From: an uncultured Planctomycetia bacterium | GTDB lineage: Bacteria > Omnitrophota > Gorgyraeia > JABMRG01 | Reading direction: 5' to 3' | Length of the DNA: 64,000 bases | NCBI GenBank assembly: GCA_964634945.1 | Contig: CAZWMG010000008.1 | Span: 268 to 64,267 of the forward strand | Shown here: in pieces, positions 6,078 to 40,626 of the stretch | How the letters are laid out: each line of letters opens with the position of its first letter | Numbering within the stretch: position 1 is the stretch's first letter | Notes under the pieces: generated by a model | The model's input: the letters and a program-made list of their open reading frames with translations, nothing else | The model's database searches: none | Told to the model about the DNA's origin: nothing | Translations under genes and position numbers: made by a program

Positions 6078-6126
6078 TGAGTTACACTTTGTTCTTTGAA
6101 TTTTTTACGCTTTGGAAAAAGCTCGT

Positions 6127-6665: not shown

Positions 6666-6791
6666 GGGCATCCGCGGTGGTAGCTGGAACAACGATGCTA
6701 CGAACTTGCGCGTGTCGGACCGTAACAACGCTGGCAACACGAACACGAATCGGAACAACAATTATGGGTTCCGCCCGGCCAGCACTCCTTG
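6666..6791 (+). repeat. DGR template repeat TR (non-coding, rich in AAC codons)
   Basis: 126 bp collinear with both VRs. The sequence aac aac gat gct acg aac ... aac aac gct ggc aac acg aac acg aat cgg aac aac aat tat is adenine-rich exactly at the positions where the VRs vary. The overlapping ORF 6314-6901 is therefore spurious. Confidence 0.85.
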
Positions 6792-7957: not shown

Positions 7958-8003
7958 ACCGGCTAACAGGTTAACCGGCTAACCAGTAGATGAGAGGTTA
8001 AAA

Positions 8004-11000
8004 ATGAATAAGCGACTGATAATAACAGTGATTTTGACAGTAGGAGTAGCCATTACAGGTATCTGGCTTGCCTTTGCGGATCAGTATACAGGCGGCGCAG
8101 GTGATGGCTGGAGTTATTCCCAGTCTCAAGATCTTCAAATGACAGGGCCTGATGTTATTTTTACTTCAGCCGAGGGCAGTGTTGGCCGTTTGGGCCAGGT
8201 GCCTTCAGGTTATTTTATTTCCGATGTTTTGGATACCAATGGCAATTCTACTTTAGGCGTCTTAAGCTGGATAGCGGATTTATCCGCGGGCGGTGAGATA
8301 AAGTTCCGAATAGCGGGCAGTGACGACAACATCACCTGGACCGATTATTTAGGCCCGGACGGCACAGCCGGAACTTATTTTACCTCTTCAGGGGAATCTA
8401 TCCCATCCGCGTTAGATGCTAAGCGTTATTTAAGATACAAGGCCTATCTTACAACAGCAGATTACACGCCTGTTTTAGACAGCGTAAGCATACAGTTTGC
8501 GGATGATAATGAAGCAAAAAGAATAATAAGTGATACCTCTGATAATAATTTTACTATCCAGACAGCCTCTATTGTTACTGCCGATGTTGAGCCTGTAAGC
8601 CTTGTAGCCGGCGTAACAGGAACTGTGGTTGTCTCGTTTACTTCTATTAACCCTATCCCCGCGGATGGCAGCATAGAGGTAACATTCCCAGTAGAATTTG
8701 ACGTAAGCGCGGTAGGAGATACCGCTTCATCATCAACAATGGACGGCTCATTAACAGTAACCGTATCAGGACAGGTGATAACTATTACCCGCAGCGGCGG
8801 TAGTGAGCAGCCGGTTGCATCAGAAAGTTTAACCTTAACCAACATTAAGAATTCCAATACTTCCGGCATAACAGGGACATACCAAATAAAGACTATTCGT
8901 TCTGACGGAAACATTATTGATGAAAAAACAGATGTTTCAGCGTCAACTATTGTATCAGCAGCTACAGCAAGTGTAACGCTTAATGCTCCTGATGATATTA
9001 CAGCAGGAGGAGCAAGAGCGGCCTATACTGTCACTCGTTATGATGAGTTTAGTAATTTAAATGATCAGGGAGCTGAGACATTCTATCTATATACTACATC
9101 ACAAGGACAGAATGTTGGGTTCTATGATGTTGTTTCCGGAGGAAGCGCGGTTACAAGCATAGATGTTGCTGATGGCACATCAGAATCTGATTTCTGGTAT
9201 TATGATGAGTTGATGGGTACATTTACTAATACTATTTCAGAGATCAATTCCGGCGCTGTATATGATGTAGGAGATAGTAGTAGTACAGATTTTGGAGATG
9301 GCACAGCATCTGGTATTGCGGTTTCAGGCTCAGGTTCTAGTGCTGAATTGGCCCTTTTAGCGAAGAACCGTTGTGGGGTGGTTTATGCAACAGATGGAAT
9401 ATATGATACCCCAGGAACTGCTAGAGGCGTTTATGTTTCCGGAAACTACGCTTATGTGGCTGATGATACGAGTGGCTTAAAAATTATTAATATCTCTAAT
9501 CCAGATTTGCCAACTCTAACTGGGACGTATGGTACTGTTGGTAATGCTCGTGGTGTTTACGTCTCCGGCGACTACGCTTATGTTACTAATCAGATTGCCC
9601 TTGAAATTATTGACATCTCCACCCCCTCTTCACCAACCTTGACTGGGAGATACGACACGTCCGGTATGCCAGTAAATGTTCATGTTCTTGGTGATTATGC
9701 CTATGTAGCTGACTGGGGTAGTGGACTTCAAATTGTTGATATCTCTACACCTTCTTCACCAAGTTTGGCAGGAACATGTGATAGTACTCGTGCAGCAGAT
9801 GTCTGTACCTCCGGTAACTATGCTTATGTTGCAGACGATACAAGCGGACTTCAAATTATAGATATTTCAAATCCTGCTTTACCTACCATTGTAGGAACTT
9901 ATGATACTGCTAATAAGGCAACTTGTGTTTATGTTTCCGGAAACTACGCTTATGTGGGTGATTATCAAGATGACTTGGTAGTTATTGACATCTCTAATCC
10001 TTCTTTGCCAAGCCTAGTCGCAACTGTTAATACTACCGGTGAGCCTAACAGCCTATATATTTCAGGTGATTATCTCTATGTTTCCGATTATTATAGAGAT
10101 GTAAAAATAGTAGATATTTCAACCCCATCTTCTCCTTTTGTAGCTACATTAGTAAAAACTGATTCAAATTATCCCCGAGGTGTTTTCGTTGCTAATGATT
10201 ATGTCTATGTAGCTGATGGTACAAGTGGTTTGCGCATCAAGGATATGACAGATTTGACGCCACCTTCTATCATTACATCTTATGATACTTCCAGTAATGC
10301 CTGGGACGTATGTGCTCTAGGTGATTATGTCTATGTAGCGGATGCGGGACATGGCCTGAAAATTATTGATATCTCTACACCTTCTTCACCAGTTTTAACT
10401 GGAACATATGATACGTCTAGTGACGCCCATGGTGTTTATGTTTTATCCGATTATGCCTATGTAGCGGATGGTTCAAATGGCCTCCAAATCATAGATGTTT
10501 CCAGCCCAGCATCGCCAACAAGGACTGGGACCTGTGATACTCCCGGTGACGCACAAAAGGTCTATCTATCTGGCAACTACGCCTATGTTGCTGATGGTTA
10601 TAGTGGTTTACAGGTGATTGATATTTCTGATTTGTCGTCGCCAACCCTAACTGGAACATATGATACTCCTGGTTTTGCCAGAGATGTTTATGTTTTAGGT
10701 GATTACGCTTACGTGGCCGATAATAGCTCTAGTGGTTTACAGATTGTTGATATTACTGATCCATCTTTGCCGAGTGCTGTTGGGTCGTATAATATTAATG
10801 ATGAGGCCCACGGTGTTTATGCCTCCGGCAATTATGCTTATGTAGTTTTTAATGGCGCAGGTTTGCATATTATCGATGTTTCCACGCCTTCTTTGCCGAC
10901 ATTAACTGGAGCGTACGATACTTCTGGCTATGGCAGAGGCGTTTATGTCTCTGGTAACAATGCTTATGTGGCAGATGATGCAAACGGTTTACAGATTATC

Positions 11001-18258: not shown

Positions 18259-18999
18259 ATGAAAAAAAGATGGATATTAACAGCTTTAATGGTAATTATA
18301 TTTTCATTCTTAGCGCAGGAGGCGGAATGCGGCATTACCTTAAAGGCCTTGGTGGTAAATCCTTCCAAGACAAAGACGCAGACAGCCCAACTTAAGGCCT
18401 ATCTGCCAAAAGAGGCATCTGCGGACGATGTTATCGATTTGGGGGATTTAAAGATAGACTATGATATTGAGAAAGGCCTTTATTTTGTGCATCAGAAATA
18501 CAAGCTTAAACCGGGAGAGAGTATAAGCCGTGAGATAGAGATAAAAGATGTATGGGTGATATCAAAGGCAGAAATAGATGATCTTACCCGCCAGGCAGCG
18601 GATCTAGCCGAAAGGCTTAAAGGTACAGCCTATTTTAATATGGCGGTTACGTTGCAAAAAGATATTGAAAGCAAGGCGGAAGAGATTATGAATAGGCAGG
18701 AAAAGGCCTTAAATGCCAATCCCCGTGCGCATATAGGCGCCTATAGAAGCAATATGAATACGCTTGATGAGACTACGGCCTCTCTGGCAAAATTAGAGAA
18801 GATGGTCGAAGAGCTGCAGGAAGATAAAGGTTCAGGCTCAGAAAAGATTCACGTTAAGGCCACATGGCGGCTCATTGTAGCCATGGTTGTTGCGTTAGGC
18901 GTTCTCTCATTTATATTCTTTGTCATATGGAATCGTCAGGCTGCGGTAGAAGGAGCCAAGCGCAAAGCTGAGCAAGGTGATAAGAAAATTAGCTTCTAA
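18259..18999 (+). CDS. Hypothetical membrane-anchored protein with an N-terminal signal/TM segment, a coiled-coil middle and a C-terminal TM helix
   Basis: MKKRWILTALMVIIFSFLA at the N-terminus and LIVAMVVALGVLSFIFFVIW near the C-terminus. No recognisable catalytic motifs. Confidence 0.55.
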   Translation: MKKRWILTALMVIIFSFLAQEAECGITLKALVVNPSKTKTQTAQLKAYLPKEASADDVIDLGDLKIDYDIEKGLYFVHQKYKLKPGESISREIEIKDVWVISKAEIDDLTRQAADLAERLKGTAYFNMAVTLQKDIESKAEEIMNRQEKALNANPRAHIGAYRSNMNTLDETTASLAKLEKMVEELQEDKGSGSEKIHVKATWRLIVAMVVALGVLSFIFFVIWNRQAAVEGAKRKAEQGDKKISF

Positions 19000-19067
19000 C
19001 TTTACAAAATAGTGCAATACTCAAAATGTAAAGTTAGCGCTTAACTTTACAAATAGGAAAATAGTGC
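18996..19067. repeat. REP-like palindromic element plus a partial second copy, overlapping the stop codon of the upstream gene
   Basis: ctaactttacaaaatagtgcaatactcaaaatgtaaagttag has 11-bp arms (ctaactttaca / tgtaaagttag). Near-identical copies occur at 40119-40162 and 40583-40626. Confidence 0.7.
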
Positions 19068-19988
19068 ATGGATGTTTCTGACCTGATTAGAAAAGGCAAG
19101 ATTAGCAGGTTATTTCGCGCCAGGAATAAGATCAGTTTTCCCGACGCGATATGTCATATTACCCAGCATGCCGCAGGAAAGGAAAAATTATTTTCAGAAG
19201 ACTCAGATTATTTGTACATGCTGCACCTTCTCAAGGCAGTAGCAGAGAAGTATAAAATCGATATTTTTTCTTTTGCCTTTCTCCCCAACCACTTACACAT
19301 CTTGCTTCAATTATCAGACGACAATCTCTCTTTGGCGATGAAAAGCCTGTTTGAGAGCTATGCTAAGTTTTACAATAATAAATATAACAGGAAAGGCCAT
19401 TTATTCTGCGGCTCATTCAGGCAGGCCCTCTGTTTTAGCGATAGTTATCTTTTGGCCATATCTTTGTATATACACATAAATGCTGTTAAGGCAAGGCTGG
19501 TTAATCGGCCTGAGGATTACCGCTGGTCATCCTGCGCGTTATATTCATCCGCTTTTAATAAAAAGACATTTGTTAACTATAAATTCATTCTAGAGAGCCT
19601 GGATGAGGATTTGGCAAACGCGCGAAAGATCTATTCTGCATTATTGCGTAGCTCAGAAAAGGTAAAAACAGAAGAGGTTAGGGTAGATATCAGGGCATTG
19701 GAATCTTTTAAAACAAGGGCAATGGAGTTTTTTCCGGCTTTAGTAAAGCGTACAGGCAGAGATGCCCCAGGTTTTTTAGAAGATGAGAAATTAGAGGAAG
19801 CGGTGTTGCAATTAAGGCAGATGGGAAGGTTGTCTACTCCTGAGAGCTTTACAGCGCGCAAGAATTTGATTGAGCAACTGAAGGCAAGAGGCTATACAAT
19901 AAAGGTTATAGGCCAAATGCTGGGCATATCCAGACAAGCGATATACAAGACGCTTAAGTTGACAAATTCTGCAATGCACAAAATGTAA
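19068..19988 (+). CDS. REP-associated tyrosine transposase (RAYT; IS200/IS605-like Y1 HUH transposase domain) with a C-terminal HTH extension
   Basis: HUH motif in LPNHLHILL. Family pattern YNRKGHLFCGSFRQ....YIHINAVKARLVNRPEDYRWSS carries the catalytic Tyr. The C-terminal GYTIKVIGQMLGISRQAIYKTLK is a helix-turn-helix. The gene is flanked on both sides by REP-like palindromes. Confidence 0.7.
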   Translation: MDVSDLIRKGKISRLFRARNKISFPDAICHITQHAAGKEKLFSEDSDYLYMLHLLKAVAEKYKIDIFSFAFLPNHLHILLQLSDDNLSLAMKSLFESYAKFYNNKYNRKGHLFCGSFRQALCFSDSYLLAISLYIHINAVKARLVNRPEDYRWSSCALYSSAFNKKTFVNYKFILESLDEDLANARKIYSALLRSSEKVKTEEVRVDIRALESFKTRAMEFFPALVKRTGRDAPGFLEDEKLEEAVLQLRQMGRLSTPESFTARKNLIEQLKARGYTIKVIGQMLGISRQAIYKTLKLTNSAMHKM

Positions 19989-20056
19989 ACTTAAGCGTTA
20001 AGTTGACAAATTCTGCAATGCACAAAATGTAAACAAAATGTAAAGTTAAGCGTTAA
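19953..20056. repeat. REP-like direct repeats overlapping the RAYT stop (aagttgacaaattctgcaatgcacaaaatgtaaac x2 plus aaaatgtaaagttaagcgttaa)
   Basis: Tandem copies are visible. They share the aaaatgtaaagtta core with the REP at 18996. Confidence 0.65.
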
Positions 20057-20993: not shown

Positions 20994-21167
20994 ATACTAG
21001 ATGCTGGATACTAGATACAAGTAATTTGTATTGTGTATTGAGTGATGCGTATTGCGAAAAATCTTAATGCTATACCTGCCTGCCGGCAGGCAGGCGCGCA
21101 ACGCACGACGCATAACGAAATAAAGGTACAAGGGATAAGTGCAAAAGATAAAGAGGAGATAGGGCAG
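20994..21167. repeat. Composite intergenic repeat element: heptamer tandem, GTATTG octamers, a conserved ~60-nt block and a perfect 20-bp palindrome
   Basis: Heptamer tandem TAGATAC TAGATGC TGGATAC TAGATAC directly after the stop codon. Octamer repeats gtattgtgtattgagtgatgcgtattgcg follow. The block ...aaaaatcttaatgctata...cgcacgacgcataacgaaataaaggtacaagg is also present at 32738-32829. The palindrome cctgcctgccggcaggcagg sits at 21075-21094. Confidence 0.6.
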
Positions 21168-22064
21168 ATGGGCGAAGAATTTAATATGTTGGTGATAGAA
21201 GATGAAGATAGTACATTCAATGTCTTGACCGCGGCATTTAGTGACAAGAAGTATAAGCTCTGGAGGGTAACTACAGGAAAAGAAGCGCTTAATCTGATCA
21301 AGGATATCTATTTTATAGCCGTTATAAGTGAATTACGCATAGCGGATATGGATGGTGTTGAATTTATACAAAAGGCTAAAAAAATAGATTCCCGTACTAA
21401 CGTAATTGTTCTTACGGCTTATTCTTTTGCTGATTCAGCTGTTCAGGCGCTCAAAGCAGGTGCTTACGCGTACGTTTTAAAGCCTCTGAACTTGGAAGAA
21501 CTCAAATTAGTATTAAGGCGATCTATAGAAAATACATGTTTGCTGATACAGGCAGGACGAAAGAAGTATTATCAGGACATGTCCATGTTAGACGGACTAA
21601 CAAGGGTCTATAATCACCGTCATTTTCATGAGGTCCTGGAGTGGCATGTAAACCACATAAGACGGTTTCCGCAGGCCTTCTCCTTGTTTATGATAGATGT
21701 TGATGATTTTAAAAAATATAATGATACCAATGGGCACGTAGAAGGGGACAAGGTCCTGCATAATGTTGCCCAGTTATTAGTGACTCTTACAAGAGACGAT
21801 GATGTAGTCTTTAGATATGGAGGGGAGGAGTTTACCGTGATTATGCCGCAAACGCCCAACCAGCAGGCGCAGATCGCGGGGCAAAGACTAATTGAAGGGG
21901 TAAGGAAACAATCGCCGGTCACGATTAGTCTTGGGCTTAGTACCTTCCCAGATGACGCTCAGGTAAAAAAGGATTTGATTTCGTATGCGGACAAGGCGCT
22001 TTATCGCGCAAAACGATTGGGAAAAGACAGGATGTGTGTCTATGATAAGAATCTGGATCGATGA
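21042..22064 (+). CDS. Response-regulator receiver domain fused to a GGDEF diguanylate cyclase (REC-GGDEF)
   Basis: REC-like N-terminal half (MLVIEDED...ADMDG...VLTAY...LKP). GGDEF domain with RYGGEEF and the DVDDFKKYND motifs. The true start is probably the ATG at 21168 (MGEEFNMLVIEDED), because 21042-21167 is the repeat element. The stop overlaps the atpE start (ATGA). Confidence 0.8.
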   Translation: MMRIAKNLNAIPACRQAGAQRTTHNEIKVQGISAKDKEEIGQMGEEFNMLVIEDEDSTFNVLTAAFSDKKYKLWRVTTGKEALNLIKDIYFIAVISELRIADMDGVEFIQKAKKIDSRTNVIVLTAYSFADSAVQALKAGAYAYVLKPLNLEELKLVLRRSIENTCLLIQAGRKKYYQDMSMLDGLTRVYNHRHFHEVLEWHVNHIRRFPQAFSLFMIDVDDFKKYNDTNGHVEGDKVLHNVAQLLVTLTRDDDVVFRYGGEEFTVIMPQTPNQQAQIAGQRLIEGVRKQSPVTISLGLSTFPDDAQVKKDLISYADKALYRAKRLGKDRMCVYDKNLDR

Positions 22065-22273
22065 AGATATTTAGTATTATCTTAGTGATGTTAATAAGTA
22101 CATTAGGCCCGTCAGGAGTCATAGCGCTGGTTGGTTATGCCAGCGTAAGAGCCTTAGGCAGAAATCCTTCCGCAGCGCCAAAGATCCTGCTCTCTATGAT
22201 TCTGGCTTTTATGTTTGCGGAGACTATAGCTATCATGGGCCTGCTTATTGTTTATAATTTATTTGGAGGATAA
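22061..22273 (+). CDS. atpE: F0 ATP synthase subunit c
   Basis: 70-aa two-helix hairpin protein carrying the loop ALGRNPSAA and the conserved carboxylate in MFAETIAIMGL. Confidence 0.8.
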   Translation: MKIFSIILVMLISTLGPSGVIALVGYASVRALGRNPSAAPKILLSMILAFMFAETIAIMGLLIVYNLFGG

Positions 22274-22278
22274 AATAT

Positions 22279-22412
22279 AAATTCTAAACTCTAAATCCTA
22301 AATTCTAAACAATATCGAATAACCAAAATTTAAATGTTCAAAACAAAGTTTTGAATTTGGAAAATTAGAATTTTGAATTTGTTTAGGATTTAGATATTAG
22401 GATTTAGAACTT
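22279..22412. repeat. Imperfect ~33-bp inverted repeat built from heptamer tandems (AAATTCT-type / TAGGATT-type) flanking an inner palindrome, located between atpE and atpF
   Basis: The left arm aaattctaaactctaaatcctaaattctaaaca and the right arm tgtttaggatttagatattaggatttagaactt are about 80% reverse-complementary. The inner palindrome ttcaaaacaaagttttgaa lies at 22337-22355. Confidence 0.6.
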
Positions 22413-22436
22413 ATTTAAAAGCAAGGAGCTAAAATA

Positions 22437-23171
22437 ATGCCGATTTGGCAGTTGATACTAATACAGTTAGTTACGTTTATCTTTATTATTCTTTTCTTGA
22501 GATGGCTGCTCTCTACCCACATAGGCCATGCTTTAAAAAGGCTGCAGCAGTTGAATCAGCAGAATCTTGAAAAGGAGAAAGCGCTAAAAGAGGAATTAGA
22601 GCGCGCGAAAAGAGAGGTTAAGAGAAAGATCGAAGAAGGCCAGCAACAGGCTGACGAAATAAAAAAGCAAGCACGGGCAGACGCAGAAAAAGATAGAGAA
22701 GGCATATTTAGCAGTGCCAGACAAGAAGCTCAAAGAATGGTTAACGACGCGACAAGAGATTGCCAGAGAAAGAAAGTTGAGCTTACCTCAGAGATGCAGC
22801 AAAAGTCGGTATATTTGGCGACTGATATCATAGGTTATATATTTACAGAACAAAATCAGAAGGATTTGCATCTGAAGCTTATTGACGAGTTAATTGACGA
22901 TATAAAAAAGCTTCAGGAGGATAAGATAAAAGCAGAAGGTGACAAAGCAGAAATTGTCTGTGCCTATGCCTTAAGTGATGGCCAAAGAAAAAAAATGAAA
23001 GAGATATTGTCCTCTAAGATTAAGCGCGACATAGAGTTGATTGAAAGGATAGACAAAGAGATCATAGGGGGACTGGTAGTAAAAATAGGCGGGTTTGTAA
23101 TAGACGGTTCTATAAAAAACAAGCTTAAGAAAATTTTACCAATTTTAAAAGAAAAAGCGAAGACGTTGTAA
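22437..23171 (+). CDS. atpFH: Compact fusion of F0 ATP synthase subunit b with the C-terminal domain of subunit delta
   Basis: N-terminal TM helix and a charged coiled coil match subunit b. The C-terminus EIIGGLVVKIGGFVIDGSIKNKLKKIL matches the delta/OSCP C-terminal motif (..IRAGDMVIDGSVRGRLERL). At 244 aa the delta N-terminal domain is absent. Confidence 0.7.
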   Translation: MPIWQLILIQLVTFIFIILFLRWLLSTHIGHALKRLQQLNQQNLEKEKALKEELERAKREVKRKIEEGQQQADEIKKQARADAEKDREGIFSSARQEAQRMVNDATRDCQRKKVELTSEMQQKSVYLATDIIGYIFTEQNQKDLHLKLIDELIDDIKKLQEDKIKAEGDKAEIVCAYALSDGQRKKMKEILSSKIKRDIELIERIDKEIIGGLVVKIGGFVIDGSIKNKLKKILPILKEKAKTL

Positions 23172-23205
23172 TTCGTTATGCGTCGCGCGCCTGCCCCCCC
23201 GTGCA

Positions 23206-23589
23206 TGTCATTCCTGCGAAAGCAGGAATCCATAGGCACGGGATAAGCTCCAGCAGGAATTCGGAAATAAGATGAAACAGTACTATGTTTACATGCTGGC
23301 AAGCAACAAAAATGGAACACTGTATATTGGCGTTACTAATAACTTGATTAGAAGAATATATGAACATAAAGAAGGTTTAGTAGAAGGCTTTACAAAAAAA
23401 TATAATATAAAACGATTGGTATTTTACGAAGAAACAAATGATGTTGAGAGTGCAATAATTAGAGAGAAGCAGATGAAGAAATGGAAGCGACAATGGAAAA
23501 TTGATTTGATTCAGAAAAATAATTCTGAATGGAAAGATTTGTATAATGAAGTAGTTGGATAGTGGATTCCTGCTTTCGCAGGAATGACA
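23206..23589. mobile_element. Putative mini-element: a GIY-YIG gene bounded by perfect 26-bp inverted repeats, inserted between atpFH and atpA
   Basis: The left IR tgtcattcctgcgaaagcaggaatcc (23206-23231) is the exact reverse complement of the right IR ggattcctgctttcgcaggaatgaca (23564-23589). Each IR is itself a hairpin (attcctgc-gaaa-gcaggaat). Confidence 0.45.
23272..23562 (+). CDS. Small GIY-YIG nuclease-domain protein (UPF0213/YhbQ-like, 96 aa)
   Basis: YYVYMLASNKNGTLYIGVTNNLIRRIYEH matches the GIY-YIG core, with a conserved downstream Glu (VFYEETND) and R/K-rich helices. Confidence 0.8.
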   Translation: MKQYYVYMLASNKNGTLYIGVTNNLIRRIYEHKEGLVEGFTKKYNIKRLVFYEETNDVESAIIREKQMKKWKRQWKIDLIQKNNSEWKDLYNEVVG

Positions 23590-23687
23590 CGGTGTAGGCT
23601 TGCCCCTGTGAAACAGGGGAATGACACGGAGTAGACTTACCTCTGTAAAGCTTGTCCCCGCGAAAGCGGGGAGTAGGGGAATGACAC
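23564..23687. repeat. Array of three hairpin units, each followed by GGAATGACAC, downstream of the GIY-YIG gene
   Basis: Unit 1 is attcctgctttcgcaggaatgacac, unit 2 is cccctgtgaaacaggggaatgacac, and unit 3 is ccccgcgaaagcggggagtaggggaatgacac. The array has no intervening spacers and is not CRISPR-like. Confidence 0.65.
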
Positions 23688-23723
23688 ATGTGACAGGCTG
23701 ATTTCTGGCAAAGGGGAAGAAGG

Positions 23724-25196
23724 TTGATGAATAACTTGAAAATAGCATCTTTAGATATAAAGGATACCGGTACGATACGTGAGATCAGAAAAGGTATCGT
23801 CAAGATAGGCGGCCTACCATCATGCATAAATGGTCAGCTTATTGAATTAGGCTCAAACCTGCTTGGTATGATAATTGGTTTTGAAGGAGATGAAGTTTCC
23901 GCGCTGGTTTTAGGTGATGAGACAAAGCTGAATATTGATGGAACTGTTTATGCTGAGCCGGGAGTTTTTGAAATCCCTGTCGGCAATAATTTTATAGGCC
24001 GTGCTGTAAATGCCTTTGCCAGGCCAACAGATGGAAAAGGCAAGATCGAGGAGAGTGATTTTCGCCCTGTTTTCAGAGATGCGCCGGGTGTAATGGATAG
24101 GACCCCCATTGATGAGTCCATGCTTACCGGGATAAAGACTATTGACACGGTTATCCCCCTGGGTAAAGGCCAGAGGGAGCTTATTATCGGCGACAGGGTT
24201 ACAGGAAAGACTACATTGGCATTGGATACGATTCTAAATCAGAAGGGCAAGGATGTGGTTTGCATATTTTGCTGGATAGGAGGAAGCTTTTCGCCGTTTT
24301 TAAAACTTATTCAGCAGATGCATAGAGACGGAGTTCTGGAGTATAGTATTGTTGTCAGTGCCCTTGCCTCTGATTCTCCCGCGGAACAATACATCGCTCC
24401 TTATACCGCTACTACATTAGGAGAGCATTTTATGTACCAGGGTAGAGATGTTTTACTGGTCTTTGATAATCTTACCAGGCATGCATGGGTCTATCGTCAG
24501 TTATCACTTCTTTTGGAGAGGTGCCCGGGAAGAGAAGCGTATCCAGGGGATATATTTTATCTTCATTCCCAGTTGATGGAGAGAGCGGCAAAACTTAATC
24601 AGGATAACGGCGGCGGTTCAATGACATTTTTGCCGATAGTAGAAACGCAGGAAGGCGATGTTACAGGCATTATTCCATCAAACCTTATTTCAATGACCGA
24701 TGGACAGATATATTTAGATACGGGGCTTTTTTACGACGGATTTAAACCAGCTATCGATTTAGGCCTTTCTGTCTCAAGAATAGGCAGCAAGGTCCAGTGT
24801 GAGGCCATAAGAGAAGTATCAGGACAGTTAAAAGCAGAATATGCCCGGTACAAGGAGCTGGCAGGTTTAACGCGCATAAGAACCAAGCTTTCTCAGGAAG
24901 TAGAATTAAAGATAAAAAAAGGAGAGACCTTAACATTCCTTCTTGGCCAGGATAAATCAAGCCCGCTGACAATAGAGGAGATAATCATTGTTTTTTATGC
25001 TTTTGATAAAGGCATTCCCGAAATATTAGATGAGGCAAAAAGAGATAAATTTAAGAATGGTATATATGCGTATATATTAAAGGAGTATCCTGATCTGATA
25101 GGAAAGCTTGCCAGCCAGAAAGCATTGACAGAAGAGATAAAGATTTTATTGGACGAGGCATTCCAGAAATTTTTTACTGAAACCAGTGGCTTGTAA
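23724..25196 (+). CDS. atpA: F1 ATP synthase alpha subunit
   Basis: Walker A GDRVTGKTTLALDTILNQKG and an alpha-type architecture. The start is probably the ATG at 23727. Confidence 0.9.
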   Translation: MMNNLKIASLDIKDTGTIREIRKGIVKIGGLPSCINGQLIELGSNLLGMIIGFEGDEVSALVLGDETKLNIDGTVYAEPGVFEIPVGNNFIGRAVNAFARPTDGKGKIEESDFRPVFRDAPGVMDRTPIDESMLTGIKTIDTVIPLGKGQRELIIGDRVTGKTTLALDTILNQKGKDVVCIFCWIGGSFSPFLKLIQQMHRDGVLEYSIVVSALASDSPAEQYIAPYTATTLGEHFMYQGRDVLLVFDNLTRHAWVYRQLSLLLERCPGREAYPGDIFYLHSQLMERAAKLNQDNGGGSMTFLPIVETQEGDVTGIIPSNLISMTDGQIYLDTGLFYDGFKPAIDLGLSVSRIGSKVQCEAIREVSGQLKAEYARYKELAGLTRIRTKLSQEVELKIKKGETLTFLLGQDKSSPLTIEEIIIVFYAFDKGIPEILDEAKRDKFKNGIYAYILKEYPDLIGKLASQKALTEEIKILLDEAFQKFFTETSGL

Positions 25197-25259
25197 AGAG
25201 TAGGGCCTGTGAGTTTTAAGCAAACGGGAAAAAATTTGTCATAAATGAGAATTTAAACT

Positions 25260-26123
25260 ATGTTTAAATTAAATATGTTACGCAAGGAATTGATTTTTAA
25301 TCAGGACATAGGTGATATAATCAATGTCTTAAAAGGTGTTGCCTCTTCCGAATTTTATCGTCTCCAGAAGGAAAAGAAAAGTTTTGATGAATTTCTGGAT
25401 TATCTCCAGAGATTTTTTAGTATGGTAGATACTACAGGTTTGCGCCATCTTTTATTGGATGATTCTTCTTTGCCACAGGCCTTGGTGCTTATAACATCTG
25501 ATCTGGGTTTTTTGGGAAAGCTCAATGTATCTGTGGTCAATACAGCTTTAGAACAATCCTCAAAAGATGATGAATTGATCGTTGTTGGCAAGCAGGGCAT
25601 CAGATATATAGAGGAGTCAGGCAGAAATTTTACCGCTTTTGAAGGTATCACAGACGAAGTAGAATACAAAGAGGCGGATAAGCTGGCAGATTGTGTTCTT
25701 AAGGGTATTCTGGATAAGAAGTTTTGTAGAACCACTATAATATATCCACACTTTATATCATTTGCTGTTTGGAAAGTACAAACCTATCAGCTTTTTCCGT
25801 GCAGATTTTTATTCCAGGCAGGCACAAAGTCTGGACAGAAGCATGAGGAAGGCAGTATTATTATTGAACCAACTTTAGCAAAGATAGCAGAACGCTTGAT
25901 AAAGATATGGATAAATTATACCTTATACGGGATTTTTTGGGAAAGTAAACTTTCCGAGTGGGCAACGCGCGTTATGCACTTGGAAGGCAGTACGCATGAG
26001 ATTAAACAGATGAACAAGAAATTGCGTTCTCAATATTTTCGTCTTATACATGAAATTAGTGATAAGAATATAAGAGAAATTTTTGCGGCTAGACTTGCCT
26101 TGGAGCAAGAAGCGGTAGCGTGA
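25260..26123 (+). CDS. atpG: F1 ATP synthase gamma subunit
   Basis: Sits between alpha and beta. The N-terminal helix LRKELIFNQDIGDIINVLKGVASSEF and the C-terminal helix IREIFAARLALEQEA are typical of gamma. Confidence 0.7.
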   Translation: MFKLNMLRKELIFNQDIGDIINVLKGVASSEFYRLQKEKKSFDEFLDYLQRFFSMVDTTGLRHLLLDDSSLPQALVLITSDLGFLGKLNVSVVNTALEQSSKDDELIVVGKQGIRYIEESGRNFTAFEGITDEVEYKEADKLADCVLKGILDKKFCRTTIIYPHFISFAVWKVQTYQLFPCRFLFQAGTKSGQKHEEGSIIIEPTLAKIAERLIKIWINYTLYGIFWESKLSEWATRVMHLEGSTHEIKQMNKKLRSQYFRLIHEISDKNIREIFAARLALEQEAVA

Positions 26124-26172
26124 TTCTAGATACTAGATTCTGGATGCAAGATGCTAGGCATAAGGAGCAAGA

Positions 26173-27585
26173 GTGAAGAAGGAAGAAGCGAAAAAGGTAC
26201 AAAAAGGCAAGGTTATCGCGGTCCAGGGGCCTATAGTTATCGTAAGGTTTGAACCTAGCCCCCTAAAGGCCGCTATCTATGATATCTTAGAGACAACGAC
26301 TTACAACGGCCAGAGAGTAGTGCTGGAAGTGGTAGAGTATGTGAGCGAAAAGGCTAATGTTATCAGCAATGTCGTTAAATGTATACCATTAACATCCATC
26401 TTTGGTTTACAGAAAAACGCCGAAGTTTCCAACACAGGTTCTATGATTAATACCCCTGTAGGAGAAAAGGTATGCTCAAGGATATTAAATGTATTAGGTG
26501 AGCCAATAGATAAAAAGGGCCCTATAGACACGAAATTGAAGAGGCCTGTGCGCAGGAGAGAGAGCGCTAGCTTGAATATAGATAAGGCCAGAGAGATGCG
26601 TTTCGAGGTAATGGAGACAGGAGTAAAAGTAATCGATCTTCTCTTCCCATTGGTAAAAGGAGCAAAAACAGGAATATTAGGCGGCGCGGCTCTTGGCAAG
26701 AGCGTATTGATGCTGGAGCTTATGCACAACATTATTAGAAAGCAAAAAGGTTTTTGTGTTTTTACGGGAGCCGGAGAGAGAGTCAGAGAGGGTAACGAGC
26801 TTTATAATGAGATGTTAAAGCAGGATATATTAAGCAGATCGATCCTGGTCTATGGGCAGATGAACGAATCTCCCGGTGCGAGATTTGAGGTCGCCCATAC
26901 CGGCGTTACCTTGGCGGAATATTTTCAAGAGAAAAACGAAGATGTTTTATTCTTTATTGATAGTGTTTATAGATTTGCACAGGCAGGAAGCGAGCTATCT
27001 ACCTTGTTGGGCAGAATCCCTTCTGAAACAGGTTATCAACCCACTTTAACTTCAGAGATGAGTGAATTTCAGGAGAGGATTCGTTCGGGAAGTAACGCGG
27101 CTATTACGGCTATTGAGGCGGTTTATGTTCCGAGTGACGATTTAACAGATCCGGCGGTTGTCTGCATATTTAGCTATTTAGAGTCCATACTTATTCTTTC
27201 TCGTGAATATGTGCAGATGGGTTTTCACCCTGCTATTGATCCCTTGCTATCCTCCAGTTCTTATTTGGATCCGATAATTATAGGCAAGAGGCATTTTAAT
27301 GTTGCGCAGGATGTCCTAAGGATTCTTAATAAATATGAAGAATTAAGAAGGATAGTTTCTATCGTCGGAGTAGAAGAACTTTCAAAGGAAGATAGAATAT
27401 TGTTTGAAAGGGCGCGGAGAATGCAAAATTTTCTTACCCAGCCATTTTTTACCGCGGAACTTTATACAGGTAAGAGTGGAGAGTATGTGTCTTTGGAAGA
27501 AACTTTAATCGGCTGCGAGAAGATAATATCCGGTGAAATGGATAAAAAATTACCCGAAGACCTATACATGATAGGAGCATTATAA
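26173..27585 (+). CDS. atpD: F1 ATP synthase beta subunit (variant P-loop GGAALGKS)
   Basis: N-terminal beta-barrel [15 protein letters not shown]. The P-loop is [14 protein letters not shown] rather than the canonical [26 protein letters not shown] and the DELSEED-region analogue are present. Confidence 0.9.
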
Positions 27586-27734
27586 TTCGTTATGCGTTGT
27601 GCGCCTGCCTATTGGCGAGACAGGTATTGCGCATCATGTAAAATTTTTAACGCAATACACAATACGATATACGCAATACGAATTAAGCACAACACAATAC
27701 ACAATACACAATACGAAAAAGAGAGAGGCAAACA
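27586..27734. repeat. Intergenic repeat region: a conserved 27-mer after the atpD stop plus an octamer array CAATAC(A/G)C x~9
   Basis: taattcgttatgcgttgtgcgcctgcc also follows the atpFH stop at 23169-23197. The octamer array acgcaatacacaatacgatatacgcaatacgaattaagcacaacacaatacacaatacacaatacg lies at ~27650-27718. Confidence 0.6.
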
Positions 27735-29480
27735 ATGGCGATAAAAGTCGGAGAGATGCTTGTTAGTAAAAAACTTATCACGGCTGAACAACTACAACTA
27801 GTTTTACAGGAGCAGCACAAAACAGGCGAATTGTTAGGCCAGACTTTAAACAGAATGGGCTACATGGCTGAGGATCAATTTTTATTGGTGCTCTCCGAGC
27901 AACTCAATATTCCGTTTATTAAATTGCAGGATGTTGATATTGACACTGAAGCTATAAAGAAGTTGCCGCCTAAGTTCGCGTGGCATTACAAGATAATGCC
28001 TATTAGTTTGTCCGATGGAAAACTTACTGTAGCTACTTTTGATCCCTTAAGCTCCTTAAATGATGTAGAAAAGTTTTTAGGATGCGAGGCTGTCCCTGTC
28101 TTGGCAACGGAGAGCGATTTGATAAAGGCGATAGAAAAATATTATGGAGTTGGCGCGGAGACCATAGAAAAGATTATCGCCGCGGCGCCAAGAGAGAGTG
28201 TAGCTGTAGATACGGATAAAGAAGTAACAGATATAGAGAAGATGGCAGGAGACGCGTCAGTAGTTAAATTAGTAAATCAGGTAATAGTTGAGGCTTACCA
28301 GAAGAGAGCTACTGATATCCATTTAGACCTTTTTAGAAACAAGCTGAGCCTGCGATATCGTATTGATGGGATACTTTATCCGGCTAATACATCAGAAGAT
28401 ATGGTGCGATTTTTTCCGGCGATTATATCTCGTATTAAGATAATGTCTAACCTGAACATCGTAGAGCGTCGTCTCCCCCAGGACGGCCGCGCTGTAGTAA
28501 AGATAGGAGATATGGAACTTGACTTAAGAATATCGATTATACCTACACGCTATGGCGAGGGGCTGGTAATAAGGATACTGCCTACAAAGATGCTTTTTAG
28601 CTTAAAGGGCCTTGGGCTGCAAGATGCAGAATTAAAGGTGCTGGAATCGCTTATATACAAACCGCACGGTATAATTTTTGCTACAGGGCCCACAGGAAGT
28701 GGAAAGACTACTACATTATACGCATGTCTTAATAAGATAAAAAGCACAGAGAACAAGATAATTACATTAGAGGATCCTATAGAATATGAACTTGAAGGGA
28801 TAACGCAGATTCAGGCTATGCCTGAGATTGGGCTTACTTTCGCTGCCGGTTTAAGAAGCGTATTAAGGCATGACCCTGATGTCATGATGGTTGGAGAGGT
28901 AAGAGACTTTGAAACAGCGGAATTAGCTATCAGGATTGCCTTGACGGGTCACTTGATCTTTTCTACGGTACATACTAATGACGCCGCGGGCGGCGTAACA
29001 AGATTGCTTGATATGGGGGTTGAGCCGTTTTTGATAACATCCTCTGTGAGAGGTTTTATCGCGCAAAGGCTCTTAAGAGTCATCTGTCCTGATTGCAAGG
29101 AAGAGGACACATCAATAGGAGACGAGATCAGAAAACAGATAGTCCGGGAGATAGCGGAGTTTCGCCCGTTTTATCGTAAAAATCCTAAGCTATATAAAAA
29201 GTTTGTTGACCTCAAGGAATCTGATATCCATTTTTACAGGGGTAAAGGCTGCGAGGCATGCAACTTTAATGGTTTTAGAGACAGGACAGCCATATATGAG
29301 ATATTGGTAGTTAACAAGGCTATAAAAGAATTGATATTGAAAAAAGTATCTACGGATATCATACGAGATGAAGCGGTAAAGCAAGGTATGAAGACTCTTC
29401 GATTGGCTGGATGGGAAAGAGTTATTGAGGGCACTACAACGCCTGACGAGGTAATAAGAATTACACAGATTGAGGAATAA
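27735..29480 (+). CDS. gspE: Type II secretion / type IV pilus assembly ATPase (GspE/PilB family) with a T2SSE N-terminal domain
   Basis: N-terminal GspII_E-like domain (LVSKKLITAEQLQLVLQEQ...). Walker A GPTGSGKTT, the Asp box and Walker B are present, along with the tetracysteine motif CPDC....CEAC. Confidence 0.9.
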   Translation: MAIKVGEMLVSKKLITAEQLQLVLQEQHKTGELLGQTLNRMGYMAEDQFLLVLSEQLNIPFIKLQDVDIDTEAIKKLPPKFAWHYKIMPISLSDGKLTVATFDPLSSLNDVEKFLGCEAVPVLATESDLIKAIEKYYGVGAETIEKIIAAAPRESVAVDTDKEVTDIEKMAGDASVVKLVNQVIVEAYQKRATDIHLDLFRNKLSLRYRIDGILYPANTSEDMVRFFPAIISRIKIMSNLNIVERRLPQDGRAVVKIGDMELDLRISIIPTRYGEGLVIRILPTKMLFSLKGLGLQDAELKVLESLIYKPHGIIFATGPTGSGKTTTLYACLNKIKSTENKIITLEDPIEYELEGITQIQAMPEIGLTFAAGLRSVLRHDPDVMMVGEVRDFETAELAIRIALTGHLIFSTVHTNDAAGGVTRLLDMGVEPFLITSSVRGFIAQRLLRVICPDCKEEDTSIGDEIRKQIVREIAEFRPFYRKNPKLYKKFVDLKESDIHFYRGKGCEACNFNGFRDRTAIYEILVVNKAIKELILKKVSTDIIRDEAVKQGMKTLRLAGWERVIEGTTTPDEVIRITQIEE

Positions 29481-38443: not shown

Positions 38444-40123
38444 ATGAAACAGCCGAATGTAATATCGAATTTTATAACAGAGATTATCGACAAAGACCTT
38501 AAGGCCGACAAATATGGCGACAAGGTTTGTACGCGTTTTCCGCCGGAACCAAACGGGTATCTACATATAGGACACGCTAAATCTATATGTTTGAATTTCA
38601 GTCTCGCCGCTTGGTACAAGGGTCTTTGCAATCTTCGCTTTGACGATACTAATCCAAGCAAGGAAGAGCTTGAATACGTAAAATCAATTGAAGCGGATGT
38701 TAAGTGGTTAGGCTTTGATTGGCAAGACCGGATTTTTTATACATCGGATTATTTTGATAAGCTTTATGAATTCGCCGTTAGCCTTATCAGGGCTGAAAAG
38801 GCGTATGTCTGCGATCTTAATTCCGAACAGATGCGAGAGTATCGCGGCACATTGACAGCGCCGGGGAAGATAAGTCCCTATCATAACCGATCGATAGAAG
38901 AAAACCTGGATCTTTTTAAGCGCATGAAAGAGGGTGAGTTTGAAGATGGCTCAAAGGTCTTACGCGCTAAGATAGATATGGCGCATCCTAATATTGCGAT
39001 GCGAGACCCGGCGATATACCGGATAAAAAAAGAGTCTCACCACAGGACTGATAACAAGTGGTGCATTTATCCTATGTATGATTTTGCGCATTGTTTATCG
39101 GATTCGATAGAGAAAATAACTCACTCCACATGCACATTGGAGTTTGAGAATAACCGCCCGTTGTATGACTGGATACTCGATGCCCTAAACGTTTACCATC
39201 CGCAGCAGATAGAGTTTGCGCGTTTAAACTTAAGCTATACTATTCTTAGCAAGCGCAAGTTGATAGAACTTGTAAAGGGAAAATATGTAAATGGCTGGGA
39301 CGACCCTCGTATGCCCACTATATCAGGGTTAAGAAGGCGGGGTTACACACCAAGTTCAATAAGAAACTTTTGCGCCGAGATAGGTGTTTCAAAAGTAAAT
39401 AGCCTTATAGATATTGTGGTTTTAGAGAATAGCCTGCGTGAAGAGTTGAACAAAAGCGCCCCTCGCGCAATGGCAGTTTTGAAGCCTCTTAAGGTAACAA
39501 TCACAAATTATCCGGAAGGGAAGGAAGAAGAACTTATTGCTATTAATAATCCCGAGGATGAAAATGCCGGCACAAGAAAGATACCTTTTTCCCGTACATT
39601 ATATATTGAGCAGGATGATTTTCAGGAAATTCCTTCGAAAAAGTTCTTTCGCTTGGCCCCTGGTAGAGAGGTGCGTTTACGCTATGGATATTTTATCAAG
39701 TGCGAGGAGGTAATAAAAAATCCAAATGGCGATATAGTGGAGCTTAGATGCAGCTATGATCCAGAAACCCGCGGCGGCGACGCGAAGGATGGCCGTAAGG
39801 TAAAGGCGACTCTGCATTGGGTGTCAGCATCGCATGCGCTTAAAACTGAGGTACGGCTTTACAATCATCTATTTTTGAAACCAAATCCTGATGATGTGGT
39901 TGAGGGCAAAGACTTTAAATCAAACCTAAATCCGGATTCTTTACAAACGATCTACCCTGCTTATGTAGAGCCGAGTTTAAAAAATTCAAAGCCAGGCGAT
40001 TCATACCAATTTGAAAGGCAGGGCTATTTTTGTATTGATAAAGACTCATCAAAAGAAAGACTCGTCTTTAATCGTACAGTGGCCTTGCGTAATACCTGGG
40101 CCAAGATATCTAAAAAGGCCTAA
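38444..40123 (+). CDS. glnS: Glutaminyl-tRNA synthetase
   Basis: [23 protein letters not shown] carries the class I HIGH motif in the GlnRS context. ILSKRKL supplies the KMSK-type motif. Size and domain order match GlnRS. Confidence 0.9.
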
Positions 40124-40162
40124 CTTTACAAAAAAGTGCAATACTCAAAATGTAAAGTTAGG
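40119..40162. repeat. REP-like palindrome (copy 2) overlapping the glnS stop codon
   Basis: cctaactttacaaaaaagtgcaatactcaaaatgtaaagttagg. Together with the upstream aaaaagg it forms a 51-bp perfect direct repeat with 40576-40626. Confidence 0.7.
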
Positions 40163-40242: not shown

Positions 40243-40528
40243 GAGAAAAGGAAGGGGAGGCCATAATAGGGCCTGAGAGTTCTGCTAATAGCAGATTACC
40301 CATAGAACCTGATCCACCTTTACTTTTTACAATAGCAGATATTGTTTTCAAGCCAAGGTGGACTCGCTGCTTTCGGTGTTCGGTATCAGATGATAGGTTA
40401 TCGCAAAGATTTGTGTTGCCACAAACGATAACCGAATATTAAAAACCAATAACCGAGAAAGCGGGTCTGGATAATGCCAGCGCAGGGAGGATAATATCTT
40501 ACCCATGCTTTCGGCATGGGTTTTTTGC
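40243..40528 (+). ncRNA. TPP (THI-box) riboswitch-like leader with an atypical ~165-nt insertion or duplication, ending in an intrinsic terminator
   Basis: THI-box elements are in the expected order: ggggaggcc...CTGAGAg...tACCCataGAACCTGATCca at 40255-40316 and gggtCTGGATAATGCCAGCGcAGGGAgg at 40463-40490. The terminator cccatgctttcggcatgggTTTTTT lies at 40502-40526. The leader sits upstream of thiE. Confidence 0.5.
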
Positions 40529-40582
40529 GTTAACAAGAACGATTTTTGTTAAAGACAATATACCCTGAGGCACCCAAAAAGG

Positions 40583-40626
40583 CCTAACTTTACAAAAAAG
40601 TGCAATACTCAAAATGTAAAGTTAGG
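40583..40626. repeat. REP-like palindrome (copy 3) just upstream of thiE
   Basis: Identical to 40119-40162. Confidence 0.7.

Follow-up and report, generated by a model that had tools for sequence, protein, structure and literature searches.

In Neisseria meningitidis, SsnA is a 94-aa single-domain GIY-YIG protein that binds the NTS motif CGTCATTCCCGCGMAVGCGGGAATCYRG solely as single-stranded DNA, not as RNA, and cuts a few nucleotides 5' of the NTS on that strand only, and the characterised Ssn enzymes leave double-stranded DNA uncut (Chenal et al., Nat Commun 2025, PMC11893778). Among SsnA homologues, such motifs lie nearby in 71% and on both sides in 42%; the NTS-ssnA-NTS arrangement was noted to resemble an insertion sequence, with mobility left as a hypothesis, modulation of transformation is the only biological role tested for an Ssn, and Omnitrophota go unmentioned (PMC11893778). 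On the side of the repeats, Di Nocera et al. (2013, PMC3733652) described CGTC-tagged repetitive extragenic palindromic (REP) elements, among them the CGTC-1 family, to which Neisseria dRS3 and Rickettsia RPE-6 belong, and found no enzyme associated with them. Here we analysed a 64-kb stretch of an uncultured Omnitrophota bacterium (contig CAZWMG010000008.1; hereafter the window) in which a GIY-YIG gene, ssn, lies between inverted, TGTC-tagged hairpins within an ATP synthase (atp) operon. This locus is most likely an ssnA-type gene together with its cognate Ssn-related motif (SRM) hairpins, which are of the CGTC/TGTC-tagged REP family, and over evolutionary time it behaves like a mobile unit. 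The kind of locus is known; the new part is comparative evidence that the ssn cassette was gained, relocated and recently exchanged.

The PF01541 domain spans residues 3-77 of the 96-aa Ssn protein with no second domain, and ssn is the sole Ssn-like open reading frame (ORF) in the window. BLASTP of the protein against a 94-aa N. gonorrhoeae ORF gave 56% identity (E=1e-41), and tblastn against the N. gonorrhoeae chromosome gave 4e-30. We take this ORF to be the SsnA orthologue on the basis of its length of 94 aa, its residues Y6, Y17 and E64 and the NTS repeats around it. It was recovered from a mislabelled chromosome in a plasmid collection; L178 (NZ_CP119140.1; L-numbers denote the loci compared) and NZ_CP119142.1 are N. 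gonorrhoeae "plasmid" records of about 2.17 Mb, evidently whole chromosomes. Residues Y7, Y18 and E65 of the window protein align with Y6, Y17 and E64 of SsnA, and Y7, Y18, R28, H32 and E65 are invariant, the catalytic Y, Y and E having been checked in 11 sequences. Family membership was defined by Chenal et al. as homology to Neisseria SsnA at E < 1e-10 (PMC11893778), a limit within which the window protein falls. It thus groups with the SsnA clade, which Chenal et al. equate with cd10448 (PMC11893778), and its membership of that CDD entry is presumed. A search of solved-structure sequences returned only 1ZG2 (BH0048, UPF0213; E=0.002, 21 bits), and the YhbQ/UPF0213-type label first given to the gene was dropped on comparing this value with the E=1e-41 to SsnA. 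Searches of NCBIfam, PHROGs and PADLOC gave weak domain-level GIY-YIG matches only, with no assignment to a defence system or to phage homing endonucleases, and no Ssn homologue was found in a collection of 50,697 phage records. The closest Ssn proteins carry the annotation Candidatus Omnitrophota, and there are thousands of homologues with a length of about 96 aa.

The inverted repeat around the gene (23206-23232 and 23563-23589; 27 nt, 100% complementary, arms 330 nt apart) is real and one base longer than the 26 nt given in the earlier note. Both arms fold as hairpins in DNA folding (-8.3 and -9.0 kcal/mol, z -4.3 and -6.1), with 0 of 200 shuffles as good. The GNRA-like loops described there were seen as GAAA in each arm, and hence in unit 1 of the right side, and again in right unit 3; the loop of unit 2 is 3 nt. 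The two additional units on the right were likewise confirmed, with different GC stems (CCCCTGT/ACAGGGG and TCCCCGC/GCGGGGA) and a common GGAATGACAC tail; both are hybrid units in which the stem differs and the ATT after the tag is unpaired. GGAATGACAC occurs on the + strand exactly three times (23581, 23618 and 23678) and on the - strand once with one mismatch (23205-23214), and the 8-mer GGAATGAC has no further occurrence anywhere in the 64-kb window beyond the cassette. Eight contigs carry the protein, and the seven of these loci that were read, in independent assemblies, are all identical to the window, so that the ssn locus is not an assembly artefact. Sequencing runs with the locus include SRR31802791-800, SRR8146440 and SRR29008690.

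A metagenome search with the b/delta protein recovered nine more distant Omnitrophota operons (L039-L047), which share the gene order GGDEF, c, b/delta, alpha, gamma, beta, T2SSE. Their spacers measure 19-36 nt between b/delta and alpha and 37-54 nt between beta and T2SSE, and neither ssn nor hairpins were found in either spacer of any of the nine. The window arrangement is therefore derived rather than ancestral, indicating that the cassette is a derived insertion into a tight operon spacer, gained in one Omnitrophota subclade.

The occupied site itself varies among closer relatives. The full cassette lies in the b/delta-alpha spacer in the window and in L008 (GCA_030593065.1), with no cassette in the beta-T2SSE spacer, which in L008 is 22 nt long by called gene coordinates. 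In L030/L032 (including Ca. Orphnella occulta), the b/delta-alpha spacer holds the left hairpin module only, with no gene, and the full cassette is found in the beta-T2SSE spacer. In atp protein identity the window resembles L030 more than L008, and one simple history places the cassette at b/delta-alpha in the common ancestor, followed by transfer to beta-T2SSE in the L030 lineage.

We further compared the proportion of synonymous differences (pS) of ssn, on 51 synonymous sites, with that of five atp genes. For ssn, pS was 0.175 between the window and L030, 0.37 between the window and L008 and 0.40 between L030 and L008, against ranges of 0.56-0.72, 0.66-0.75 and 0.55-0.76, respectively, for the atp genes (Fisher p = 1.7e-11, 1.1e-5 and 3.7e-4), so that the synonymous divergence of ssn is 2-4 times below that of every flanking gene. 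General constraint on synonymous sites was rejected as the cause, because distant ssn pairs are saturated (pS 0.67-1.06). The low values combined with this saturation mean that the cassette copies share a later ancestor than the host genomes, which points to exchange or re-insertion of ssn copies after the host lineages split. The G+C content of ssn is 0.30, compared with 0.37-0.42 for the atp genes.

The flanks of ssn were then read in eight further loci whose homologues are 69-90% identical. L008 and L030/L032 represent the same atp operon; in L034 and L179 the gene has a MerR-like gene on one side and a large serine recombinase on the other and belongs to an element that also carries a D5-type primase; it lies between hisS and aspS in L181, beside DUF2130 and a UvrD-like gene in L184 and after a large unannotated gene in L037, and L117 is a Pirellulales genome. 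Seven of the eight share one layout, consisting of a + hairpin with its tag distal, a short leader, the gene, and a stop codon directly followed by the TGG of a - hairpin whose tag is again distal; the stop-codon/TGG junction was seen in L008, L030, L034, L179, L181 and L184. The exception is L037, where a complex array of ATGAC-tagged hairpin units stands without such a junction. A check for other GIY-YIG copies with the same termini, proposed when the locus was first described, thus came out positive in all but L037. The hairpin stems differ between loci, and in some the left and right stems co-vary, most clearly in L184 (TCCAGA/TCTGGA, 16-nt loops). In all eight contexts ssn is co-oriented with its upstream neighbour.

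The homologues in L034 (139-2468) and L179 (1-5198) are 77-80% identical to the window Ssn, and L179 adjoins a D5/primase-helicase gene of an integrative element; serine-recombinase integrative elements of this sort could ferry the cassette between genomes. A further array was seen in L084 (6500-8000; Flavobacteriaceae bacterium GF1, AP035880.1), where five tandem units of about 300 bp, each with an outward hairpin pair and an apparent truncated ssn 3' end on the - strand, adjoin an Ssn-like ORF that runs off the end of the stretch. This array looks like a tandemly amplified, decayed cassette. In two predicted proteins, P0003 and P0018 (L008 4001-4036; L179 3001-3066), gene callers add an N-terminus by translating the upstream hairpin ('MSFPCKRES..' and 'VIPMKMGIQ..'), and these extensions are repeat artefacts.

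Comparison with the described repeat families placed the window hairpins close to both. The window unit TGTCATTCCTGCGAAAGCAGGAATCCAT agrees with the NTS consensus in 24 of 28 positions, and of the mismatches, four in number, two amount to a compensatory replacement of a C:G by a T:A stem pair; the upstream hairpin of L034, whose homologue is 80% identical, equals NTS at 27 of 28. Read as TGTC-ATTCCTGC-GAAA-GCAGGAAT-CCA, the window unit also shows every feature by which CGTC-1 is defined, in that its tag is unpaired, its 8-bp stem begins with AT, its loop has 4 nt and its tail is CCA. When one genome per species was scanned, the T:A hairpin variant was found in at least 120 loci of other genomes from many phyla. 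Among the 120 variant loci listed, an Ssn-like ORF stood within the stretch read in 5 and none stood there in 115. Where two gene-less hairpins lay close together, the pair faced outward in 5 cases and inward in 0, and the cassette therefore looks like an outward-facing hairpin dimer with a gene in the middle; gene-less dimers of the cassette orientation occur in other phyla. The 10-mer GGAATGACAC on its own was rejected as a diagnostic, since in viral contigs pairs of units spaced 20-50 nt apart turned up at 12 loci, all of which proved to be unrelated coding sequence or simple repeats.

Features of the cassette and its surroundings are collected in Table 1. The alignable block covers about 520 bp, from CCTGCC (23190) to about 23708 (or 23189-23708); in the comparison with L030 its right end reads GGCAGGC..CTRG. 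At its left end, the 83-nt fold that includes the hairpin extension reaches -18.2 kcal/mol (z -3.8), and CCTGCCCCGTG stands ahead of the TGTC tag in L008 and L030 as well. The accessory module TAGGCACGGGATAAGCTCCAGCAGGAAT recurs as 2-3 tandem 31-nt copies in L030 and as a reverse complement 3' of ssn in L008, and the leader (AGAAATAAG/AGAAAGAGC) is conserved at other ssn loci. On the right, unit 3 is homologous to the unit 3' of ssn in L030, similar composite units occur in L037, and its tail GGAGT..TTACC resembles the GGAGTTTACCCCG module of other loci.

Table 1 Features of the ssn cassette, its neighbours and the local R2 repeat (positions in the window)
Feature	Position	Strand	Remarks
R2 copy 3	21075..21119	-	Upstream of GGDEF gene; arms abut as perfect palindrome CCTGCCTGCC/GGCAGGCAGG; R2 match 21106-21119
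ATP synthase b/delta fusion gene	22437..23171	+	Upstream neighbour of ssn; PF00430, PF00213
R2 copy 1 (TTCGTTATGCGTCG..GCGCCTGCC)	23172..23195	+	Starts directly after b/delta stop codon
5' extension of left hairpin (CCCCCGTGCA)	23196..23205	+	Pairs with 23236-23243, lengthening the hairpin; predicted + strand Ssn cleavage region
Left SRM/NTS-type hairpin	23206..23232	+	TGTC tag, stem ATTCCTGC/GCAGGAAT, GAAA loop, CCA tail; tag away from gene
Accessory module TAGGCACGGGATAAGCTCCAGCAGGAAT and short leader TCGGAAATAAG before ssn start codon	23233..23271	+	
ssn, 96-aa single-domain GIY-YIG protein, SsnA clade	23272..23562	+	PF01541 E=3e-16
Right SRM hairpin unit 1	23563..23590	-	Exact reverse complement of left unit; CCA tail abuts ssn stop codon; tag away from gene
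Right unit 2	23591..23627	-	Tag GTGTCATT; stem CCCCTGT/ACAGGGG at 23603-23619; -6.9 kcal/mol, z -3.3
Right unit 3	23628..23687	-	Tag GTGTCATTCCCC; stem TCCCCGC/GCGGGGA at 23655-23672; GAAA loop
Right outer end of shared block (ATGTGACAGGCTGATTTCTGG)	23688..23708	+	Homology to the other-site cassette of L030 stops here
ATP synthase alpha gene	23724..25196	+	Downstream neighbour of ssn; PF00006, PF00306, PF02874
R2 copy 2, gene-less	27586..27624	+	Directly after beta stop codon; CCTGCC, 9 nt, GACAGG; spacer that holds the full cassette in L030/L032

By homology with the Neisseria and Wolbachia enzymes, Ssn would bind the TGTC-tagged hairpin only in single-stranded DNA, as supplied by replication, transcription, repair or DNA uptake, and would nick a few nucleotides 5' of the tag. 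Outward tags on opposite strands would put the nicks just outside the cassette, one per strand, with predicted positions at about 23200-23205 (+ strand) and immediately to the right of 23590, 23627 and 23687 (- strand). If such a nick in a hairpin dimer became a break or gap, host recombination might repair it from a dimer holding ssn, so that the gene would be copied into a gene-less dimer; repair in the reverse direction could remove ssn from a dimer. Such movement would be a homing-like conversion and not the work of a transposase. Because GIY-YIG enzymes are hydrolytic and form no covalent intermediates, host-repair movement is favoured over transposition. Since no promoter above the shuffled-sequence background and no terminator-like site was predicted in 22000-24000, ssn is probably expressed by operon read-through. 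We tentatively propose, as a possibility that we consider short of likely, that SRM-ssn-SRM is an autonomous selfish element, of a class yet to be established, whose GIY-YIG single-strand nickase targets its own hairpins and spreads, aided by host repair, into head-to-head dimers that lack the gene. On this view Ssn would mobilise CGTC-tagged REPs in the way that REP-associated tyrosine transposases (RAYTs) mobilise GTAG REPs, and the R2 hairpins described below would be its landing pads or footprints.

Several observations weigh against a mobile ssnA-type cassette. The topology of the ssn tree agrees with that of the host genes, and vertical descent with unusually slow synonymous change might conceivably still account for the low pS on 51 sites. 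No clean empty/filled junction, flanking direct repeat or target-site duplication was found, the spacers outside the block failing to align between genomes and the junctions being too diverged for a firm negative. Only four tagged hairpin units occur in the window, all at ssn; no copy lies elsewhere in the 64 kb, which thus gives no hint of a large set of repeats on which the enzyme could act. The NTS repeats nearest ssnA in N. gonorrhoeae have tags facing inward, opposite to those in Omnitrophota, so the outward geometry is not universal. Self-catalysed cut-and-paste by a hydrolytic GIY-YIG nuclease is unlikely, and the repair-based route is our inference. The published SRM string HGTCWYN(0-2)YYVSBRHN(0-5)WNVSBRGN(0-2)RNCYNB had 0 strict matches in the window; both arms fit it only once the two T:A-altered stem positions were freed, and the string relaxed in this way matches about twice per shuffled window, hence is not specific alone. 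This last miss arises because the string forbids a T:A pair; it reflects how narrowly the string is drawn and does not make the window hairpins another kind of repeat.

We also considered an immobile gene. A domesticated host gene, for example one restricting incoming single-stranded DNA in transformation as in Neisseria, with hairpins that mark or regulate it and with genome differences arising from ordinary repeat recombination or deletion, would be in keeping with the only role tested for an Ssn (PMC11893778), with the identity of the locus in independent assemblies of the species read, with one ssn copy per 64 kb, with the matching tree topologies and with the type II secretion/type IV pilus-like genes that adjoin the operon. 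We nevertheless regard it as unlikely, because nine syntenic relatives have neither ssn nor room for it, sister lineages carry ssn in two different spacers, its synonymous divergence is far below that of the neighbouring genes, and close homologues occur in unrelated contexts including serine-recombinase integrative elements. A cellular role of Ssn is compatible with mobility and the two can coexist, so that this explanation is a rival only in its immobile form. It is improbable, and considerably more so, that the hairpins are ordinary RNA-level REP-like elements that stabilise or attenuate the operon transcript and among which a functionally unrelated ssn landed. Many REPs are argued to be transcribed and 3' of ORFs (Di Nocera et al. 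2013, PMC3733652), all window units would be transcribed with the operon, and 115 of the 120 listed variant loci had no Ssn-like ORF in the stretch read. However, ssn has hairpins on both sides wherever it was examined, the left and right stems co-varying at some loci, no such hairpin lies in the window away from ssn, SsnA binds the DNA form and not RNA (PMC11893778), and the hairpins have neither a terminator-like site nor an Rfam match, at the gathering threshold or at E<=1. A role of the hairpins as intrinsic terminators was considered too and set aside for want of any terminator-like site.

Two further explanations seem to us very improbable. The intergenic, co-oriented insertion between highly conserved genes, together with weak profile matches (TIGR01453, 20 bits; PHROG homing endonucleases, E about 5e-4), might suggest a free-standing GIY-YIG homing endonuclease of the T4 Seg or I-TevI type that cuts double-stranded atp DNA in ssn-less genomes and is copied in by repair. 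However, Ssn has only 96 aa and no DNA-binding domain, the TIGR01453 score compares with a cut-off of 56, no homologue was present in the 50,697 phage records, homologues elsewhere share the hairpins and not the neighbouring genes, and characterised Ssn relatives do not cut double-stranded DNA (PMC11893778). We give equally little credence to mobilisation of the hairpins, with ssn as a passenger, by an IS200-like or REP-associated tyrosine transposase encoded 3.3 kb upstream (19068-19988). That ORF does match Y1_Tnp (E=5e-8) and NCBIfam REP_Tyr_transpos (63 bits), and such enzymes act on single-stranded hairpins; the second score, however, lies below the cut-off of 80, the hairpin that flanks the ORF is another one, CTAACTTTACA-N20-TGTAAAGTTAG, which has copies of its own at 40.1 and 40.6 kb, no homologue of the ORF was found in any compared locus, including the cassette-bearing L008 and L030, and CGTC-tagged REPs are reported to show no association with such transposases (PMC3733652).

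The transposase-like ORF has a C-terminal helix-turn-helix and, in the region 18996-20050, is preceded by one CTAACTTTACA-N20-TGTAAAGTTAG hairpin (18996-19037) and followed by related tandem copies. The two distant copies (40120-40161 and 40584-40625) bracket about 420 nt (40.16-40.58 kb) with short ORFs only, a stretch that has no Rfam match and ends in a terminator-like hairpin (about 40505-40530). The ORF and its hairpins may be a second, independent repeat-plus-enzyme system in the window.

A local repeat, R2, consisting of TTCGTTATGCGTYG..GCGCCTGCC and an inverted arm GRCAGG, occurs three times in the window, where no copy would be expected, and each copy lies in a spacer of this operon. 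At the ssn site, CCTGCC (23190-23195) forms the outer left arm, with its inverted partner GACAGG at 23692-23697, and the pair encloses the 496-nt hairpin-gene-hairpin unit. The 27-mer TAATTCGTTATGCGTYGYGCGCCTGCC occurs at 23169 and 27583 (0 expected), and R2 stands at the same two post-stop sites in L030 and is absent from L008 and the distant relatives. The R2 copies may be landing pads or footprints, and either reading fits repeated local movement.

The gene ssn is co-oriented with the flanking b/delta and alpha genes. The ATP synthase operon (22061-29480 and downstream) is interleaved with type II secretion/pilus genes, with a GGDEF response regulator ahead of subunit c and, between beta and epsilon, a T2SSE/MshE ATPase, after which come T2SSF and pseudopilins. 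This interleaved order of atp and type II secretion genes is kept in all Omnitrophota relatives examined (including L030 and L040-L046); in L038 (1414-3737), tblastn matches put gamma between b/delta and alpha, an unusual atp order. Low-complexity stretches of the CGCAATACACAATACG type occupy several spacers (27640-27715 and 21020-21060 in the window) and yield spurious ORFs such as 'TIHNTQY', and a spacer of L038 (2139-2245) holds a different, similar-looking stretch, GGTTAGCGGTTTACGG/CCGATAACCG. Farther upstream in the window, 868-2077 and 4906-6115 form a 1.2-kb direct duplication with 93% identity, with related 125-nt segments at 6666-6791 and 7988-8111.

The earlier note had read the locus as a minimal mobile or selfish cassette of nuclease and repeats, inserted within the atp operon and not known to have been described. 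Insertion between the b/delta and alpha genes is borne out by the nine empty syntenic operons, and the comparison of empty and occupied sites that it called for further gave an occupied site in L008 and, in L030/L032, a remnant with the other spacer occupied. The anatomy and movement of the cassette also stand, given the empty sites, the relocation, the low pS and the shared termini; no evidence emerged that the nuclease drives this movement. The supposed novelty does not hold, as CGTC/TGTC-tagged REPs (PMC3733652) and the Ssn/SRM system (PMC11893778) were already published.

The Ssn family was described only in 2025, and the question of mobile versus domesticated loci was left by the authors as hypothesis; our literature searches found no follow-up publication testing Ssn mobility. 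The present locus offers a natural experiment in a conserved operon, with sites that are empty, one that is occupied, another that is occupied in its stead, a remnant, and a clear contrast to the host genes in synonymous divergence, and the combined evidence indicates that the cassette moves or is exchanged faster than species diverge. As the SRM string misses compensatory stem variants, the published association figures are minimum values. Should the nuclease prove to drive movement, the origin of CGTC-tagged REPs, which had no known enzyme, would be explained.

Set beside known systems, the cassette shares with GIY-YIG homing endonucleases (T4 Seg, I-TevI) the GIY-YIG core, an intergenic position between conserved genes and a proposed spread that is homing-like. 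It differs in that Ssn lacks a DNA-binding domain, in an expected substrate that is a single-stranded hairpin rather than a double-stranded gene, and in not being found in phage records. With REPIN-RAYT and IS200/IS605 systems it has in common a small nuclease gene between inverted copies of a recognised single-stranded hairpin, and gene-less inverted dimers elsewhere. However, the window enzyme is a hydrolytic GIY-YIG protein in contrast to HUH/Y1 enzymes with a covalent intermediate, and its tag is TGTC in place of GTAG. GIY-YIG proteins have no HUH/Y1 chemistry, and peel-and-paste therefore cannot be assumed for the cassette. Membership of REPIN-RAYT was rejected because the enclosed gene is GIY-YIG and the nearby Y1-type ORF has different flanking repeats. 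Assignment to insertion sequences or transposons was rejected as well, since a domain search found no transposase within the cassette and no flanking direct repeat was seen, at junctions too diverged for a firm negative.

The likeness is closer to CGTC-1 REPs (PMC3733652), with their CGTC/TGTC tag, 8-bp stem starting AT, 4-nt loop, CCA tail and head-to-head dimers, from which the window departs in that its dimer encloses ssn and units 2 and 3 are hybrid. Compared with the Ssn/NTS-SRM system (PMC11893778), the window differs in its host phylum, Omnitrophota, in the compensatory C:G to T:A change in the stem, in tags that face outward and not inward as in the nearest repeats of N. gonorrhoeae, in copies that are gene-flanking only within 64 kb rather than hundreds, and in its position inside an ATP synthase operon. 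Both systems nonetheless have a single-domain GIY-YIG protein of about 95 aa with the conserved Y, Y and E (56% identity to Neisseria), near-NTS tagged hairpins on both sides of the gene, and hairpin stems that co-vary with the protein from locus to locus.

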